This document shows positions 1,296 through 16,573 of a DNA stretch of 23,613 nt, piece by piece. The DNA comes from a virus (lineage: Duplodnaviria > Heunggongvirae > Uroviricota > Caudoviricetes). The position numbers and the translations under genes are program-made. The notes below the pieces were generated by a model, which saw only the letters and a program-made list of their open reading frames with translations, ran no database searches and was not told where the DNA came from. Where the stretch lies: IMG/VR virus record IMGVR_UViG_2617270938_000001, one strand, 5' to 3'. Numbering within the stretch: position 1 is the stretch's first letter; each line of letters starts with the position of its first letter.

Positions 1296-1521
1296 CTTCC
1301 AGTATCCTCTTCAAAGCAGGGTGATCTGTGGCGATCACCTCCGGCTTGTTTACCATTCCGACAAAGCGAGCTTGCGGATCCACTCGCCAGCGTCTTCCAA
1401 CTTTTTTGGGGAGAGGAAATATCATTCCGGCTTTAGCGTATTTACTTAACGTACTCGGAGTTGGGACCGGTTCACTGAATTCCTCTTTTGCCCACTCAGT
1501 GAGCAGAATAAGTCTTGCCAT
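1273..1521 (-). CDS. xis: excisionase (Xis-like DNA-binding protein)
   Basis: 82-aa basic ORF whose 3' end overlaps the int start by 23 bp, the lambda xis-int arrangement. Contains the FPLPKKVGRRWRV motif similar to lambda Xis. No clear SD upstream, so the start is uncertain. Confidence 0.7.
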   Translation of the reverse strand: MARLILLTEWAKEEFSEPVPTPSTLSKYAKAGMIFPLPKKVGRRWRVDPQARFVGMVNKPEVIATDHPALKRILEDGAPAKI

Positions 1522-1585
1522 GAGCGTCGTTCGCTAATCATGGTCGCCGCCACTATAGCTGGTGGGCAACGACCGGGGTTGAACA

Positions 1586-4057
1586 TTAAAAATCAGCCTG
1601 GTTCGGGATCAGTTTTTGCCAGATAACTGAAACGTATTTTGCCTGGTAACGGGCGTCATCAAGTGCATTATGGCGCTCACCTTCGAATGGAATAGCCGTT
1701 CTGGCATCGAAGTCTATGGCTTTCCCCAGCTCAACGATTGTGCGTACATCGCGATCGTTGTAGTAACGCCACGGGCAGGGGATCCCCTGCCGTTCGTATG
1801 AACGGCGCAAAATCGTGTTGTCGAAGTTGGCTCCATTTCCCCAGACCTGAACAAAAAATTCACCGGAGTTTTCGTCGATAAATTCCCGCAATTGTAACAG
1901 TGCATCATCTAACGGGATTTCATCGGTCATAATGGCAGACTGCGCTTCACGTGATTGCTTCAGCCACCTTTTAATGACGTCACGATCAATGACTCCGCCA
2001 GCAGTTTCCAGATCGATAGTCTTACTAAATTCCGGTCCCATATCTCCGGTTTGCGGATCGAAAAATATTGCACCTATTGAGATAATCGGGGCATCAGGAT
2101 TTTTTCCCATGGTTTCAAGGTCGATCATTAGATGGTCACACGTCCTGCTGGTGGATGTGATAACGTGATGACCGTTCATCGTAATTAAGGGATCTGCCGT
2201 CTCGCCAGTTTCACTATCGCTGGCGTGATCCTGAGCGCTACCAGCATTCTCCTTGTGTGGATGTTCAGCGCCTTCCATTTCCTTCGGATCATTTTCCTGA
2301 ACTTCAACCTGATTCTCTTCATCGAATGTTTCCTGGTATGTTGCGTCACCCATCACCGCGCCACAATCAGGGCAGTTGCCGCCACCGCTTTGACCGCAGG
2401 CGGTGCAGACTTTTTCCGGTTCCTGTTGCGCTACTGGCTCAGGTTGTTTCGTTTCTGGCTCGTTTTGTTGCGTATTTGGGCTGTTTTGTTCCGCTTTCTG
2501 GTCGTTCTGTTCCGATTCTTGCTGGTTCTGGTTTACAGAATCGCGGGTTTCAATCCCCTTTACCCATTTCGGATCATTCGGGTCGCTAATCCCTGCAACA
2601 AATTCTCCGCGAGAGGCAGCAAGCAACTTATCGGCGTCAGGCTGGCTGATATTGGCTGCCTGCATAATTTTGTTTACTTCGTCAGCGGTAACTTTTACCG
2701 GCTCTGGTTGTGCGGTCGTGTCAGATGCACCAGTATTTTGTTGTGAACCTGAGTACGTGCCGTTTTTACGTGCGAAGTATTCCTCTTTTGTGATTTCCGT
2801 AGCTCCCAAGGCTAGTGCTTTTTCCAGACCAGAAAGTTTGTTTGCGCGACCGTATTTTTCGCCATCCTTGTCGGTGAAGAGGAAGTAGAACGGCCCCTCA
2901 CGCTCTACAGATGGTTCGACTTCCACTTTGCATTCGGTTTTTTCGTTGCCCGGAATTGCCGTTTCCACTGCATCAGTTTCTGGTACTGGCGACGAGAGAG
3001 TATCAGTTGCGCTCTGATTTCTTCCTTCATCTTCAAACACGCCCTTTGTAGTCAGGTATTCAGTAATGTATTTGTTCAGTGCCACAGGGTCTTTGTGAAT
3101 GTCGATCGGACGTTCACGGACAAGGCCAAAAATAGTCTGGCGGTCGTAGCGAAGGGCATCAGGCTGTTTGCGCATTGATGCCGAGATACGCTTCCAGTCT
3201 TCGCGGTCGTTGTCGATAACTTCATTTTTTGCCCAGCGATGGATGCTGCCGTCAATGTTTCCGGCATCCACATCACCAGGCCAGAGAGCGTAGGCCAGTT
3301 CGTCATCCAGTGTTTTCCATGTCTGCTTGTATTCGCGATGAATGGCAGCAATGACCGGGCTGATTTTTCCTGTTGAATTTTCACTGTGCTGTTGATTGGT
3401 TCTGGCGCGGGCGAGATCAACAACAGACGTGTATTTTCCGGTTTCCTTGCGTTCACCTTCGCGACGTTTTTTCCAGATGCGCATCTCTGCCTGAATTTCG
3501 GGCCATTTGGCACCAGGCTTACATTTATGCTTAACCCACCCGATGGCATGCAGCTTAAGCTCCGGATACATGGCGTTAACTTCTGGCATTTTCATCAACG
3601 CTTCAACGATATGTCCGTCGAATGTTGCCATGTCTTCCTGCAACAATTCCTGTGCGCTAATAACCATATCAACGGTGATGTTTTCACATGTGTCGAACTT
3701 AACCATGACAGCGTTCTGTACTTCAGGGGCCAGCTTGTCAAAAGTGACGTTCATCGGATCGGATTCAGTCTCAACCGGGACAAAGGAAGCAGACTCCTCA
3801 TCCCAGCGGTTTTCCTGCATATATTCAGCATCCCAGGAATCGAGGGCAGGGCGGGGTATACCGGGTTTATCCTCGCAGACAAGAAATTTATAAGCGCAGT
3901 CCTGAGCAGCCGGATAATGCTCCAGGAATTGCCAGTGAAATTTTGCGCGGGCGCGACGTTCATCACCGGCTTCAATGGCAGTGGCTACAGCGACGGCACC
4001 TTCTTCCTTTATTGCCTGTTCGTCCGGAATGGCGGCGCAAATAAAGACTTTACTCAT
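1586..4057 (-). CDS. exodeoxyribonuclease VIII-like protein with C-terminal DEDDh (DnaQ-like) 3'-5' exonuclease domain
   Basis: 823-aa ORF. C-terminal ~180 aa has exo motifs (MIDLETMG..., WGNGANFDNTIL, HNALDDARYQAKY). Central Cys4 ribbon CTACGQSGGGNCPDCG and a Q/E/P-rich low-complexity linker. GAGG SD upstream of the ATG at 4057. Confidence 0.8.
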   Translation of the reverse strand: MSKVFICAAIPDEQAIKEEGAVAVATAIEAGDERRARAKFHWQFLEHYPAAQDCAYKFLVCEDKPGIPRPALDSWDAEYMQENRWDEESASFVPVETESDPMNVTFDKLAPEVQNAVMVKFDTCENITVDMVISAQELLQEDMATFDGHIVEALMKMPEVNAMYPELKLHAIGWVKHKCKPGAKWPEIQAEMRIWKKRREGERKETGKYTSVVDLARARTNQQHSENSTGKISPVIAAIHREYKQTWKTLDDELAYALWPGDVDAGNIDGSIHRWAKNEVIDNDREDWKRISASMRKQPDALRYDRQTIFGLVRERPIDIHKDPVALNKYITEYLTTKGVFEDEGRNQSATDTLSSPVPETDAVETAIPGNEKTECKVEVEPSVEREGPFYFLFTDKDGEKYGRANKLSGLEKALALGATEITKEEYFARKNGTYSGSQQNTGASDTTAQPEPVKVTADEVNKIMQAANISQPDADKLLAASRGEFVAGISDPNDPKWVKGIETRDSVNQNQQESEQNDQKAEQNSPNTQQNEPETKQPEPVAQQEPEKVCTACGQSGGGNCPDCGAVMGDATYQETFDEENQVEVQENDPKEMEGAEHPHKENAGSAQDHASDSETGETADPLITMNGHHVITSTSRTCDHLMIDLETMGKNPDAPIISIGAIFFDPQTGDMGPEFSKTIDLETAGGVIDRDVIKRWLKQSREAQSAIMTDEIPLDDALLQLREFIDENSGEFFVQVWGNGANFDNTILRRSYERQGIPCPWRYYNDRDVRTIVELGKAIDFDARTAIPFEGERHNALDDARYQAKYVSVIWQKLIPNQADF

Positions 4058-4149: not shown

Positions 4150-4341
4150 TTAAAGACCTGCCGGGATTTCGTTATTATCCTGGTGAATAACTTTATCGAC
4201 CGGGTAACAGTTACCGGGAATTTTCTGTTCGGTTGCTGCAGTCACACACTCCTGCATTGTCCTGTGAACACTGACTGCAATATCAACTGGCTCTCCGGAA
4301 ACAAGAAAAACTGTCAGAACAAGTGCAAATGCTGTATTCAT
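4150..4341 (-). CDS. small secreted protein (63 aa, predicted signal peptide), unknown function
   Basis: Start chosen at the internal ATG (MNTAFALVLTVFLVSG...) with AAAGGA upstream; hydrophobic N-terminus then VSG/EP cleavage-like site, two Cys. Its start overlaps the stop of the upstream gene (ATGA). The longer 81-aa start at 4395 is possible. Confidence 0.4.
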   Translation of the reverse strand: MNTAFALVLTVFLVSGEPVDIAVSVHRTMQECVTAATEQKIPGNCYPVDKVIHQDNNEIPAGL

Positions 4342-4526
4342 TGCCAGCATCCTTTTTGTATCGGACGTAAACGGGCCAGCATTGAAAGAATGCATATTTT
4401 ATTTAATAGCTCCCGTTCGTGTTTTCTCTTGTTAATGGCATCTTCAGTAAATACAGGGTTACTGATATTGACACCAATTTCAAAACAACCTTCAGACGTA
4501 TTAACGTTTGGTAATAACGTTTCCAT
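4338..4526 (-). CDS. hypothetical small protein (62 aa), early-left operon
   Basis: ATG preceded by GAGGA at 7 nt (METLLPNVNTSEGCFEIG...); ATGA-coupled to the next gene. The ORF track allows a longer 97-aa form starting at 4631. Confidence 0.4.
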   Translation of the reverse strand: METLLPNVNTSEGCFEIGVNISNPVFTEDAINKRKHERELLNKICILSMLARLRPIQKGCWQ

Positions 4527-5087
4527 TATCGCGTCCTCAACAATGAATTTTGTGATGCGGTGCCTGGTGCCTCCAGGTGACGTTAACCAGTTAACAATTA
4601 ACGCCGGATACAGAGAATCCACCCATAACACTGTTTTTGGTTTTAACTGTTCCGCGTGCGCTCAGCCGCATTCACCACATCACAAAATTCACTTTAAAAA
4701 GGGCGGCAGAGCAGTCACGGAGTAAAACTGATACCGCCAAACGTCACCAGAAAATTGATAACAGAGGGCGTTGCAGCGGGGTTGTCACTTAAGCGTATGG
4801 TCAACCTGACAACCCGGTGTCCTCAACGGGGAAGGAATACCCCCGCCATACTTACCGCCGCGCCATTTCGCGGAGTGCCACAACCGGAAGCGCACGGTCG
4901 ACGAAAATTTAACGACAGGCTATCTATGAACCAACAACTTCGCCGTGTGCTTTCGCGTTATGCCCTGACTTTTCAGGGAAATATCCTTTCAGTAAACTGT
5001 CAGTGCCGGATGCTCACCCGTGTCCGGCGCACGCACTCCACCTCACCCGTGGAGAACTCCTTAATCACCAACCCTCAGGAGGGTGAA

Positions 5088-5363
5088 ATGTCGACTGAAA
5101 ATGATGAAATCATTAACTCCCTGATACGCCAGATTAATAATTTTGATAAAGCATTGCAACATGCTGCGGCGCGTAGTGATATAACTCTTTTAGCAATTTC
5201 ATTTCTTGCATCTGTTATGGATAAAAATGAAGTCGTACGACAGAGTCTTGTTGATTATATCGACTCGCTTCAACCCGGCACTTTCAATCATGAGAGCTTC
5301 AATCATGAGAAAGAGCATGTTAAGTCTGTAATTAATTCTCTTATTTTGAATCAAAAGAATTAA
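5088..5363 (+). CDS. hypothetical protein (91 aa) on the opposite strand inside the leftward operon, AT-rich (moron-like)
   Basis: Strong SD AGGAGGG 4 nt before ATG 5088 (MSTENDEIINSLIRQINNF...). Low-GC segment. The upstream part of ORF 4755..5363 has no SD and looks like run-in. Confidence 0.5.
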   Translation: MSTENDEIINSLIRQINNFDKALQHAAARSDITLLAISFLASVMDKNEVVRQSLVDYIDSLQPGTFNHESFNHEKEHVKSVINSLILNQKN

Positions 5364-5661
5364 TGCTTTTTGTTGCAAAGTAATTTTCAAGGGGTTCTAT
5401 TCGAATCCCTTTCTTTTTCATTAACAAGCCAAACCCCTTATCAATGATGTCCATTAGATCCAGGAAGTATTTTTCATGTAAATCCTGGTTATCAGAGAGC
5501 TGCTTCTCTTCGTACAGCCCGATAAAGGCTCGGCGCACGTTACCGGATATAGTATCGATGGTTTCTTTTTCTATGGTACTCAGGTCAAGAGTCGCCAGTT
5601 GGGAACGAACTATAATCACTGCCATTTCCTGGAATTGCATTGGTAAATCTTTAAATTCCAT
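5341..5661 (-). CDS. hypothetical protein (106 aa)
   Basis: GAGG SD 7 nt upstream of the ATG at 5661; acidic protein MEFKDLPMQFQEM.... Its 3' end overlaps the 3' end of the convergent 5088..5363 gene by 23 bp. Confidence 0.5.
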   Translation of the reverse strand: MEFKDLPMQFQEMAVIIVRSQLATLDLSTIEKETIDTISGNVRRAFIGLYEEKQLSDNQDLHEKYFLDLMDIIDKGFGLLMKKKGIRIEPLENYFATKSINSFDSK

Positions 5662-5683
5662 TATTAGCCTCGTTGGTTAGCTA

Positions 5684-5902
5684 TTAACGTGGGTATGTAA
5701 TCATTCTGGCAATGCTTAATGCCGCTGCTTTTTCCAGCCTGGTGATATCCTGCTCCAGAGCGGACAGATTTTCAGCCTGCTTAGCCCTGGCTTCATTGGC
5801 CCATTTCAGATCCTGCGCTGCATTAATTTTCTGGCGCATCCACTCATAAAGTTCATCATCGGTATAGTCTGGCGCGATGATGACGGGTTCTCGTTTCTGC
5901 AT
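5684..5902 (-). CDS. hypothetical protein (72 aa, predicted helical)
   Basis: GAGGAA SD 7 nt upstream of the ATG; charged heptad-like sequence (...AQDLKWANEARAKQAENLSALEQDITRLEKAAA). Confidence 0.5.
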   Translation of the reverse strand: MQKREPVIIAPDYTDDELYEWMRQKINAAQDLKWANEARAKQAENLSALEQDITRLEKAAALSIARMITYPR

Positions 5903-6061: not shown

Positions 6062-6217
6062 TCACTCACCTGAGTTTCTTTCCAGCCAGCGACGGGCACC
6101 ATTTTCGGTTTTAAACGTTTTGCTTTTGGTATACGTCATCGCGGTGAATGTGCCGTCCTGGTTGGGAAACACGCCGTACACCAGAGATTCGTTGTTGCCA
6201 AGATCGATAGTATCCAT
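6062..6217 (-). CDS. small protein (51 aa), first gene of the leftward early operon
   Basis: Internal ATG with GAGG SD 5-6 nt upstream (MDTIDLGNNESLVYGVFPNQDGTF...). The longer 78-aa form (start 6298) has a weaker SD. Position matches small genes next to the repressor in Rac-type prophages. Confidence 0.45.
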   Translation of the reverse strand: MDTIDLGNNESLVYGVFPNQDGTFTAMTYTKSKTFKTENGARRWLERNSGE

Positions 6218-6402
6218 GTTGACCTCATTTCCCCTTAACGCCGGGGTAGCGGAACAAAAACCTGCTGCATAGTTATTAAAGTTGAACCCCGCCGTCATGT
6301 TCTTACGCCTCGGGCTGGCTACTTAACCCCTGACCACTGCCTGGTAACTCGAAGTATTGCCCTGCATTCTGTGGGGCGGGGTGGGTTGGTATGAAAAGAA
6401 GG

Positions 6403-10731: not shown

Positions 10732-10942
10732 AAACGGTTTGCGGGAAAAGGAGAGTTAAGTAGAATTGCAGCGGGTGCTTGAGGCTATCTGTCTCAGGCA
10801 TGAACACCAAAAGGCAGATAGAGAAAAGCCCCAGTTAACATTACGCGTCCGGCAAGACGCTTAACATTAATCTGAGGCCATATCTATGCTCTACACACGT
10901 AGGTTAGCCTCTTACGTGCCGAAAGGCAAGGAGAAGCAGGCT

Positions 10943-11098
10943 ATGAAGCAGCAAAAGGCGATGCTAATCGCCCTGATCGTCATCTGTTTAACCGTCATTG
11001 TGACGGCACTGGTAACGAGGAAAGACCTCTGCGAGGTACGAATCCGAACCGGCCAGACGGAGGTCGCTGTCTTCACAGCTTACGAACCTGAGGAGTAA
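10943..11098 (+). CDS. hokD: Hok/Gef-family type I toxin (51 aa; matches my recollection of E. coli HokD/RelF)
   Basis: MKQQKAMLIALIVICLTVIVTALVTRKDLCEVRIRTGQTEVAVFTAYEPEE. AGGAGA SD 8 nt upstream. An in-frame upstream extension from ATG 10886 gives a 70-aa mok-like ORF. Confidence 0.9.
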   Translation: MKQQKAMLIALIVICLTVIVTALVTRKDLCEVRIRTGQTEVAVFTAYEPEE

Positions 11099-15469: not shown

Positions 15470-15540
15470 GGCCCTTTAGCTCAGTGGTGAGAGCGAGCTA
15501 AAGGGCCGGGTCGCTGGTTCAAATCCAGCAAGGGCCACCA
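15470..15540 (+). tRNA. tRNA-Ile-like element with aberrant anticodon arm (probable tRNA pseudogene)
   Basis: Acceptor GGCCCTT/AAGGGCC, D-arm GCTC-AGTGGTGA-GAGC, T-arm GCTGG-TTCAAAT-CCAGC and 3' ACCA are intact. The anticodon-arm region is 12 nt (AGCTAAAGGGCC) instead of 17 and is perfectly complementary to the element's own 5' end. Confidence 0.5.
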
Positions 15541-15549
15541 TATCACATA

Positions 15550-15626
15550 CCACCATTAGCTCATCGGGATAGAGCGCCAGCCTTCGAAGCTGGTTGCGCG
15601 GGGTTCGAGTTCTCGATGGCGGTCCA
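15550..15626 (+). tRNA. tRNA-Arg (anticodon TCG)-like; candidate tRNA with imperfect stems
   Basis: D-arm GCTC-ATCGGGATA-GAGC; anticodon arm CCAGC-CTTCGAA-GCTGG; T-loop TTCGAGT; 3' CCA. One A-C mismatch in the acceptor stem and two G-T pairs in the T-stem. Confidence 0.45.
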
Positions 15627-15882: not shown

Positions 15883-16080
15883 ATTGTCTGGCTGCCGGAG
15901 AATTTGTTAAAAATAACATCGCATGGTGAATCCCCCTCAGCGGCGGGGCATCTGGCAAAGTGTATGATCCAGAGAACATGCAAATTCAGTAGACAGGCTG
16001 AATTTACCGGGAGGCCCCTGGCACCATGCGACAGACAGAAATTAGGCTATACTTCAGCCCCTCTCCGGAGGGGCTTTTCT
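15883..16080 (+). ncRNA. candidate noncoding RNA element A (about 198 nt), paralog of element B, ending in intrinsic terminator AGCCCCTC-TCCG-GAGGGGCT + TTTT
   Basis: Shares blocks with 16352-16545 (ATTGTCTGGC, TTTGTTAAAAA, CGCATGGTGAATCCCCCT, GAATTnACCGGGAGGCnCCnGGCACCATGC, identical terminator hairpin). The overlapping ORFs are on different strands in the two copies, arguing against a shared protein. Confidence 0.45.
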
Positions 16081-16268
16081 GTGCAGGATGTGTCACAGTT
16101 TCCTGAATTCTGAGTACTGTCCTGTTACTCAGGGTGCTATATTTTCTGACGTGATGAAAGTCTGCCGGAAGGCGGAACGTATCGGAAATGACCCAGTAGA
16201 GAAAACGTTGACTCAGATACCGATGCTGAGTTACCGGGAAACCGGCATCACATGACCGCTATCCTTCC

Positions 16269-16351: not shown

Positions 16352-16545
16352 ATTGTCTGGCCGGCGGGAAGTTTGTTAAAAAATTTCGCATGGTGAATCC
16401 CCCTGTGCGGAGGGGTAATCAGCGAGTAGGTATATGGGATAATCGCGGATTCAGGTGCTGGTACTGAATTCACCGGGAGGCACCCGGCACCATGCAATGG
16501 CACATAGCGCCACTCTCCAGCCCCTCTCCGGAGGGGCTGTTTATA
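16352..16545 (+). ncRNA. candidate noncoding RNA element B (about 194 nt), paralog of element A, same terminator hairpin (16519-16538)
   Basis: See element A. The conserved 5' block, the GGTGAATCCCCCT block, the GGGAGGC block and the terminator are retained while the middle has diverged. Confidence 0.45.
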
Positions 16546-16573
16546 TTGATTTTGTCAGATGTGAGTAAACTCC

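Follow-up and report, generated by a model that had tools for sequence, protein, structure and literature searches.

A candidate accessory-gene slot between ydfC and dicF in the early-left operon of a Qin-type prophage

The Qin prophage of Escherichia coli K-12 carries the dicBF operon, with its genes in the order ydfA-ydfB-ydfC-dicF-dicB-ydfD and an interval of 340 nt between ydfC and dicF that has been described as a 'long untranslated region' (PMC5069750). DicF, a small RNA (sRNA), and DicB come in K-12 from a single transcript, which starts at dicBp upstream of ydfA, has no internal promoter and is processed by RNases III and E (PMC10448788); dicF and dicB are both toxic if overexpressed (PMC10448788; PMC5069750). 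In the Rac prophage, sieB is an exclusion gene that is expressed from the prophage (PMC10883804), and among the lambdoid phages the OOP RNA, which overlaps the 3' end of cII, provides a precedent for convergent antisense control (bioRxiv 10.1101/787010). Here we have analysed a 23,613-nt stretch of Caudoviricetes DNA (IMG/VR record IMGVR_UViG_2617270938_000001; "the window"), in which the interval between ydfC and dicF holds a convergent pair of genes: a minus-strand gene on the operon strand, which we call the family gene, and a plus-strand gene, which we call the partner gene (type A). We have found that the ydfC–dicF region is a hotspot: it houses a gene family of modular build together with small orphan genes of at least nine unrelated kinds, which follow a shared, structured leader. 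We give roughly even chances to the reading that it is an accessory ('moron') payload slot, a positional analogue of Rac sieB, whose payload is probably lysogen-expressed and is met head-on by early transcription on its way to dicF and dicB.

The operon of the window runs in the order ydfA-like gene, ydfC, family gene, partner gene, DicF, dicB, ydfD-like gene (Table 1). It shares with K-12 Qin this gene order, homologs of DicF, dicB, ydfC, ydfA and ydfD, and the same ydfC–dicF spacer; it differs in that the slot is empty in K-12, the partner and family genes being additions to the published description of the operon. Genes within the ydfC–dicF interval are not mentioned in the published accounts of dicBF (PMC5069750, PMC10448788) or in a cell-division screen, and, as far as searchable papers show, an accessory slot within this much-studied operon has not been described before. 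A reading of the window from its sequence alone (the sequence-only reading) had placed a plus-strand gene against the direction of a leftward operon; this is borne out, and the operon is specifically an early-left operon of the Qin dicBF type. The pair itself was given there as a 91-amino-acid (aa) plus-strand gene with an AGGAGGG Shine–Dalgarno sequence (SD) and a 106-aa minus-strand gene, overlapping by 23 bp in AT-rich DNA, and the sequence and the list of open reading frames (ORFs) agree with this exactly. The GC content is 0.34–0.41 over positions 5100–5700 (0.35 in the partner gene) and 0.44–0.55 in the flanks. The family gene has its own translation signal, a GAGG 6 nt upstream of its ATG.

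The limits of the insertion are defined by two empty sites, in phage vB_EcoS-640R1 and in K-12 Qin. The former aligns to the window up to 5073 and resumes at ~5664 (blastn and junction alignment), and the empty-site junction reads ...TTACCAACC|TTAGCTTCGTTGG... At the same two junctions the PPompW/Stx2a phages carry another convergent pair (77 aa and 135 aa), which also overlaps by 23 bp; we regard this agreement in length as coincidental. Around 480 related loci were fetched from IMG/VR and other sources, classified by what lies downstream of the family gene, and deduplicated to 239 distinct loci, in 92% of which a conserved leader on the plus strand is followed by a small convergent gene. These genes fall into nine types without detectable similarity to one another in BLASTP. 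They encode 57–148 aa, all are opposite to the operon strand, and the six types measured have a GC content of 0.35–0.42 against about 0.5 in the flanks. The family gene for its part occurs with at least five unrelated C-terminal types: 0 (106, 109 or 124 aa; 106 aa in the window), 1 (~212 aa), 2 (133 aa), 3 (135 or 201 aa) and 4 (129 aa). Among the distinct loci, type 0 is found with partners A (50), B (6) and I (4), or with none and an intact 124-aa gene (12); type 1 with G (61); type 2 with H (36) and F (14); type 3 with D (43) and J (4); and type 4 with K (1). The partner alone is therefore swapped behind an unchanged family gene in type 0 (A, B, I or none), type 2 (F or H) and type 3 (D or J).

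The partner genes share what precedes them. A leader ending ...CTCAGGAGGGTGAA-ATG stands directly before partners A, B, D, H and J, and in A includes the SD; a second leader, ending ...AATGGAGGATAAA-ATG, stands directly before partners F, G and K. DicF and the spacer that separates it from the slot are present in 4326 of 5426 complete E. coli genomes (about 80%), often in several copies, giving 8998 places in all. Type A fills 201 of about 8998 such DicF-leader places and is found in 198/5426 genomes; the only homologs found are close (at least 76% identity) and almost confined to E. coli prophages, and partner A is present in none of the 50,697 sequenced phage records searched. Two features by which moron loci are recognised are thus seen here, namely presence or absence at a fixed site among similar prophages and a deviant, AT-rich composition. 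Among the other occupants, partner I (148 aa, locus L154) has two transmembrane-like segments and a weak PADLOC match (E = 0.002) to RTasSLATT, the DRT-associated SLATT model. The match is a lead only, though I is the sole occupant that hints at a known defence-effector fold.

The overlap of the coding regions varies with the partner: it is 23 or 32 bp for A, 11 bp for B, 23 bp for D, 41 bp for H, 131 bp for K and 0 for G, while partners F and I are separated from the family gene by a gap of ~80 nt (in I, 79 nt past the family stop, L154). Since its length ranges from a 131-bp overlap to an 80-bp gap, the coding overlap is, judged across these loci, incidental, and it is the orientation and the expression platform that are the conserved features. 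In type A about 18 codons at the end of the 124-aa form of the family gene are lost at the join, and the last seven codons of the partner are the antisense of ancestral family-gene sequence; the 23-bp overlap would then be a by-product of the joining of payload and family gene. The overlap lengths 23, 32, 11, 23, 41 and 131 all equal 2 modulo 3 and so place the two genes in the same relative frame (including L054, L001, L183 and L085), which may only reflect the antisense frame that is poorest in stop codons.

The partner A ORF has two main alleles, which are 79% identical. Its ratio of non-synonymous to synonymous substitution rates (dN/dS) against the 79%-identical allele is 0.28, the lowest among the six frames, and 18.8/43 changes are synonymous where ~21% would be expected (p of the order of 3e-4, our estimate from the counts). 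Complete copies are intact in 56/56 cases among the related contigs fetched. All indels are in frame; they comprise a 15-nt repeat that is present in 1, 2 or 3 copies depending on the allele, a 9-codon deletion and a single-codon deletion. For the family gene ORF dN/dS is ~0.35; no other frame does better, though one may equal it, and the differences to count are few. By these measures partner A and the family gene are both under purifying selection and are real genes, beyond what chance would give. Conservation of the partner frame in related prophages was one of the points on which the sequence-only reading had made its proposal depend, and the frame is kept at 76–79% identity.

It is very improbable that the plus ORF is a product of chance or annotation and that only the minus-strand gene is real. 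One could cite in favour of this the AT-rich DNA in which the ORF lies, homologs restricted to close relatives, its absence from PHROGs as well as from the phage records, and a start that is disputed between pipelines (91 aa or 145 aa). The dN/dS of the ORF argues against it, as do the survival of the frame through three different in-frame indels, the perfect SD 4 nt from the ATG, and the fact that eight further unrelated ORFs take up this position, each preceded by that SD or one equivalent to it. The 145-aa form (e.g. P0122, with 481 member sequences), often called by annotation pipelines through upstream extension, is likely a systematic mis-annotation. We considered the in-frame extension (4926–5087, plus strand; open from 4755/4926) as coding sequence and rejected it: it gives no signal of selection and contains a stop in L061.

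The family protein consists of a conserved N-terminal two-helix module of ~55 aa and a variable C-terminal region. PHROGs 6937, 1363, 2151 and 9419 match only its first 55–66 residues. A search with residues 1–58 against 1.84 billion cluster representatives returned 30 clusters, in which the match is always at the N-terminus of proteins totalling 31–208 aa. The module is predicted as a two-helix hairpin with a per-residue confidence (pLDDT) of 85–90 for residues 1–50, the remainder being less confident. Close homologs (n = 229) are all annotated 'hypothetical', and their named sources are Escherichia, with a few from E. albertii, E. marmotae and Salmonella; on this sampling the family gene is a narrow enterobacterial prophage family. 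Partner A is an acidic protein (pI 5.4) for which AlphaFold predicts four helices at moderate confidence (pLDDT 69). The maximum 19-residue Kyte–Doolittle means of the two proteins are 1.43 and 1.09; both are acidic and are predicted to be helical and soluble, neither is a small hydrophobic peptide, and the Kyte–Doolittle scan found no transmembrane-length hydrophobic segment in partner A.

Searches of Pfam, PHROGs, PADLOC and NCBIfam with both proteins and with eight alternative partners gave only PHROGs of unknown function and sub-threshold noise; partner A matches no PHROG. The AlphaFold models (pLDDT about 69–70) were compared with the Protein Data Bank (PDB) and BFVD in Foldseek, and the sequences were searched by hidden Markov model against PDB sequences. 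Only one match fell below an E-value of about 0.01, that of the N-terminal module of the family protein to an uncharacterised phage protein of 52 aa. The homology and structure searches that the sequence-only reading had proposed have thus been run and did not identify the function of either protein.

The signals that could express the partner gene lie in the GC-rich spacer and in the leader that follows it (Table 1). Consensus and position weight matrix (PWM) scans gave a best candidate promoter with a PWM score of 9.0, compared with a median of 7.8 and a 95th percentile of 11.0 for the maxima of shuffled sequences. Its two hexamers are invariant in nine aligned states, and the spacer between them varies. 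As plus-strand RNA the 85-nt leader has a minimum free energy of −37.3 kcal/mol (z = −4.1; 0/200 shuffles as stable), while as minus-strand RNA its z is −0.8. Hairpin 3 pairs the SD with upstream bases; in our reading hairpin 1 contains several G·U pairs. The second leader family (F, G, K) has the same strand asymmetry. As we read the sequences, it forms a hairpin unlike hairpin 2 in sequence where hairpin 2 would be, and the SD of either family can pair through its GGAG with an upstream CUCC(U/A). The assignment of structure rests on energy and strand asymmetry, variation being too little, and the two families too divergent to align, for covariation. Past the partner stop, a hairpin followed by a T-run is a possible terminator for partner transcripts. 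It lies within codons 81–91 of the family gene, and we rejected it as proof of a transcription unit, as it is family coding sequence in all states, the partner-less ones included. On the minus strand, the interval from the family gene to dicF has no predicted terminator. The plus-strand specificity of the leader structure lends indirect support to the partner having expression signals of its own.

These signals also bear on the possibility that the main function lies in the RNA. A plus transcript born in the spacer would then brake dicBF by antisense or head-on transcription and limit leaky expression of dicF and dicB, with the ORFs as secondary passengers. The spacer, the candidate promoter hexamers and the leader hairpins are conserved at empty and solo sites too, the stable structure is specific to the plus strand, and the operon transcript must cross the region to reach the toxic dicF and dicB (PMC10448788; PMC5069750); OOP/cII offers the lambdoid precedent. 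We nevertheless consider this quite unlikely: purifying selection on the plus ORF, a strong SD at fixed spacing and the intact copies indicate that the protein matters, the promoter is without statistical support, and the K-12 study, which did not look for an antisense RNA in the region, did not report one.

The closest likeness to the locus is Rac sieB. In both, one or more DUF1391-type genes lie on the operon strand, and a gene on the opposite strand converges on them with overlapping 3' ends. The Rac order is ydaF, convergent sieB (4-bp overlap), the sRNA kilS and the cell-division inhibitor kilR, where here DicF and dicB follow the partner gene; the K-12 Rac layout spans L089 3906–4812. 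The flanking DNA of Rac is homologous to the window, though the kilS–sieB spacer shows no homology to the DicF–slot spacer at the blastn level. Like sieB, the partner gene lies within a lambdoid early-left operon on the opposite strand and converges on the early gene upstream. The differences are that there is no sequence similarity, neither protein of the pair matching the SieB family in Pfam or PHROG; that SieB, annotated in Rac with 162 aa, is the larger protein; that here an extra family gene stands between ydfC and the opposite-strand gene; and that the occupant is hypervariable. SieB is a membrane protein, and partner A shows no hydrophobic segment of transmembrane length. From this comparison the partner gene is a positional analogue of sieB and not a homolog. 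For the exclusion module suggested in the sequence-only reading, sieB, which shares the place and orientation and overlaps ydaF, is an actual precedent. The Rac layout suggests that these early-left operons share a design in which an opposite-strand gene lies just upstream of a pair made up of an sRNA and a division inhibitor.

With the known moron and defence hotspots (the repressor–N interval carrying rexAB or bstA; P2/P4) the slot has in common a fixed site with conserved flanks, presence, absence and replacement among close relatives, and occupants that are unrelated and AT-rich and bring translation signals of their own. It differs from them in lying within an sRNA leader in an early operon, in that its occupants are tiny single ORFs (57–148 aa) without recognisable defence domains, and in that these have in common a structured leader, in which a hairpin pairs the SD, and almost always accompany one modular gene. 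OOP/cII in lambda and 3'-overlapping type I toxin–antitoxin pairs such as txpA/RatA resemble the locus in having, in a phage or prophage, a convergent transcript that can pair with the 3' part of a message from the operon strand, with an RNase III-sensitive duplex as the expected consequence. Unlike theirs, the convergent transcript here encodes a conserved protein and the complementarity would span the whole gene, beyond a short tail; the gene on the operon strand does not encode a small hydrophobic toxin, and the overlap is not conserved.

The payload-slot reading would work as follows. The pair would sit in a variable accessory-gene slot in the dicF leader of a Qin/dicBF-type early-left operon. 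The family gene would be an ordinary member of the operon and would stay unexpressed as long as the DicA/cI-like repressor is active. The partner would be the exchangeable payload of a fixed plus-strand platform, made up of the spacer with its candidate promoter, the ~85-nt structured leader with its SD-pairing last hairpin, and the strong SD at constant spacing; the possible terminator is located inside the 3' end of the family gene. The payload would be made in the lysogen, like Rac sieB and other morons; accessory loci are typically lysogen-expressed (bioRxiv 10.1101/787010). Its small, acidic, helical product may bind some phage or host protein, its role most likely being exclusion/defence or host modulation. 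On induction, early transcription toward dicF and dicB would collide with the plus-strand gene, forming a long sense/antisense duplex (~330 bp) and shutting it down; in the lysogen, transcription of the plus-strand gene would oppose leaky read-through into the toxic dicF–dicB. If the transcript of dicF and dicB lacks an internal promoter here as in K-12, it must read the whole of the plus-strand gene antisense, beyond the last 23 bp. The sequence-only reading had drawn mutual interference or antisense control from the convergent overlap; a sense/antisense conflict is indeed geometrically unavoidable, but the 23-bp overlap is not a conserved regulatory feature. An antisense conflict and an exclusion-like role for the pair are both plausible.

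Several observations weigh against the payload slot. No significant sigma-70 promoter was found upstream of the partner by the consensus and PWM scans. The spacer, leader hairpins 1 and 2 and the terminator-like hairpin are also present in partner-less loci, and the spacer and hairpins may serve the dicF precursor or another function. No homology, fold or defence-database match supports any function for either protein or for the alternative partners. Finally, the co-occurrence of partner and family gene is far tighter than a free-standing moron requires, and each partner type is seen with one C-terminal type only.

Because this linkage is so tight, a second reading, the main rival of the first, is kept alive, in which the two genes are a coupled module: the partner acts on or with the variable C-terminal domain, and the two genes travel and diverge together as one cassette, for example as an effector with its inhibitor or immunity protein, or as a defence protein with self-immunity. 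The indel relative to empty sites contains exactly both genes, and partner A alone and the whole cassette are each found in 198 genomes. In searches seeded with the partner, the family gene was convergent in 32/32 loci for B, 74/74 for G and 55/56 for H. In L328, the lone H exception, the N-terminal module is missing and the C-domain ORF is kept beside the partner. The left junction of the partner-less state is another one, as a secondary deletion of the partner could explain. In L328 the family gene (1739–1942, minus strand) is 67 aa, C-domain only, with a new start, and is still convergent with partner H at 1501–1779 (plus strand). Cognate protein–protein specificity is argued against by C-terminal type 0, since this one type accepts three unrelated partners or none, the 124-aa gene being intact in the 12 solo loci. 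Genes that abut or overlap are also inseparable by recombination, and strict linkage would be expected of them without any functional tie. In addition, the genes lie on different strands and their control would not be shared, no match to a toxin, antitoxin or defence family was obtained, and neither protein is a hydrophobic peptide. We regard the coupled module as possible but doubtful. Rather unlikely, in our estimation, is a more elaborate proposal, that the ydfC–dicF slot holds a rapidly diversifying two-component prophage defence/counter-defence pair, in which a modular early protein and an SD-gated, lysogen-expressed partner would provide self-immunity and dicBF antisense would couple their activity to the lysis–lysogeny state.

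A toxin–antitoxin (TA) arrangement, which the sequence-only reading had also raised, does not fit. Type II systems consist of adjacent co-transcribed genes, and these genes converge with overlapping 3' ends and are not co-transcribed. Pfam, NCBIfam and PADLOC searches with both proteins found no type II TA domain (best E-values 0.014–0.043, far below the curated cut-offs), nor any other family of TA, defence or toxin proteins. The family gene accompanies the partner in nearly every case, while the family gene itself stands alone and intact in 12 loci and elsewhere has three unrelated partners. As for type I systems, there is no small hydrophobic or membrane toxin in the pair, and in place of a non-coding antisense antitoxin the convergent transcript carries a selected ORF with a strong SD.

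The occupants of the slot form a defined candidate set for screens of exclusion, defence and host-modulating activity, and their placement raises the question of whether a head-on gene between the operon promoter and the toxic dicF and dicB alters the expression of these. If the occupants are ordinary morons, the value of the slot would lie mainly in cataloguing and annotation, such as correction of the 145-aa mis-call.

Table 1 Positions in the window of the gene pair, its expression signals and the neighbouring operon genes
Feature	Position	Strand	Details
DUF1482 (YdfD)	4150-4395	-	Pfam
dicB, cell-division inhibitor	4338..4526	-	Pfam PF05358, E 4e-36
DicF sRNA	4701..4752	-	Rfam RF00039, 76.7 bits, E 1.3e-15
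Conserved GC-rich spacer, DicF to slot	4753..5073		~320 nt; in empty, solo and all partner-bearing states
Best candidate promoter for partner gene	4970..4998	+	TTTTCA-N17-TAAACT
Structured leader	5003..5087	+	hairpin 1 5003-5030, hairpin 2 5036-5054, hairpin 3 5065-5086
Two-gene cassette, insertion relative to empty sites	5074..5663	both	590 bp; partner SD to family-gene start codon
Shine–Dalgarno AGGAGGG of partner gene	5077..5083	+	4 nt upstream of ATG
Partner gene, type A	5088..5363	+	91 aa; ATG 5088-5090, TAA 5361-5363
15-nt tandem repeat within partner A gene (FNHES/FNHEK)	5283..5312	+	
Coding overlap, 3' ends of partner A and family gene	5341..5363	both	23 bp
Family gene	5341..5661	-	106 aa; ATG is complement of 5659-5661; operon strand
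Terminator-like hairpin and T-run	5389..5420	+	9 bp, -11.6 kcal/mol; 26 nt after partner stop
ydfC homolog, immediately upstream of family gene	5684..5902	-	ydfC / YdfC family annotation in matching phages
ydfA/ydaF-type DUF1391 gene, first part of early-left operon	6062..6298	-	Pfam PF07151, E 5e-28

Some further details concern the neighbouring operon genes. The listed dicB ORF reaches back to a GTG at 4631, but only its last 62 aa make up the DicB domain. The DUF1391 gene is homologous to Rac ydaF DNA; the ydfA of the IbfA paper is an unrelated plasmid gene. Within the spacer, blocks 4781–4819, 4846–4897 and 4958–5037 are invariant even where a shorter hairpin RNA replaces DicF (L084, L087), and that RNA retains the 5' sequence UUUCUGGUGA. 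The K-12 RNase III site that gives the 190-nt DicF species maps to ~4890 of the window, inside an invariant block.

Elsewhere in the window, a sok antitoxin RNA is found at 10773–10948 (plus strand; Rfam RF01794, 117 bits), and this match implies a type I TA locus of hok/sok type elsewhere in this prophage. Two tRNA genes followed by two copies of the STnc100 sRNA (139 and 133 bits) occupy 15470–15623, 15891–16084 and 16360–16548 (plus strand), and this stretch is probably a late-regulatory region. An 823-aa exonuclease-like protein (1586–4057, minus strand) carries a Rv2179c-like 3'-5' exoribonuclease domain at its C-terminus (E 3e-63), and its gene takes the position of RecE/exodeoxyribonuclease VIII.

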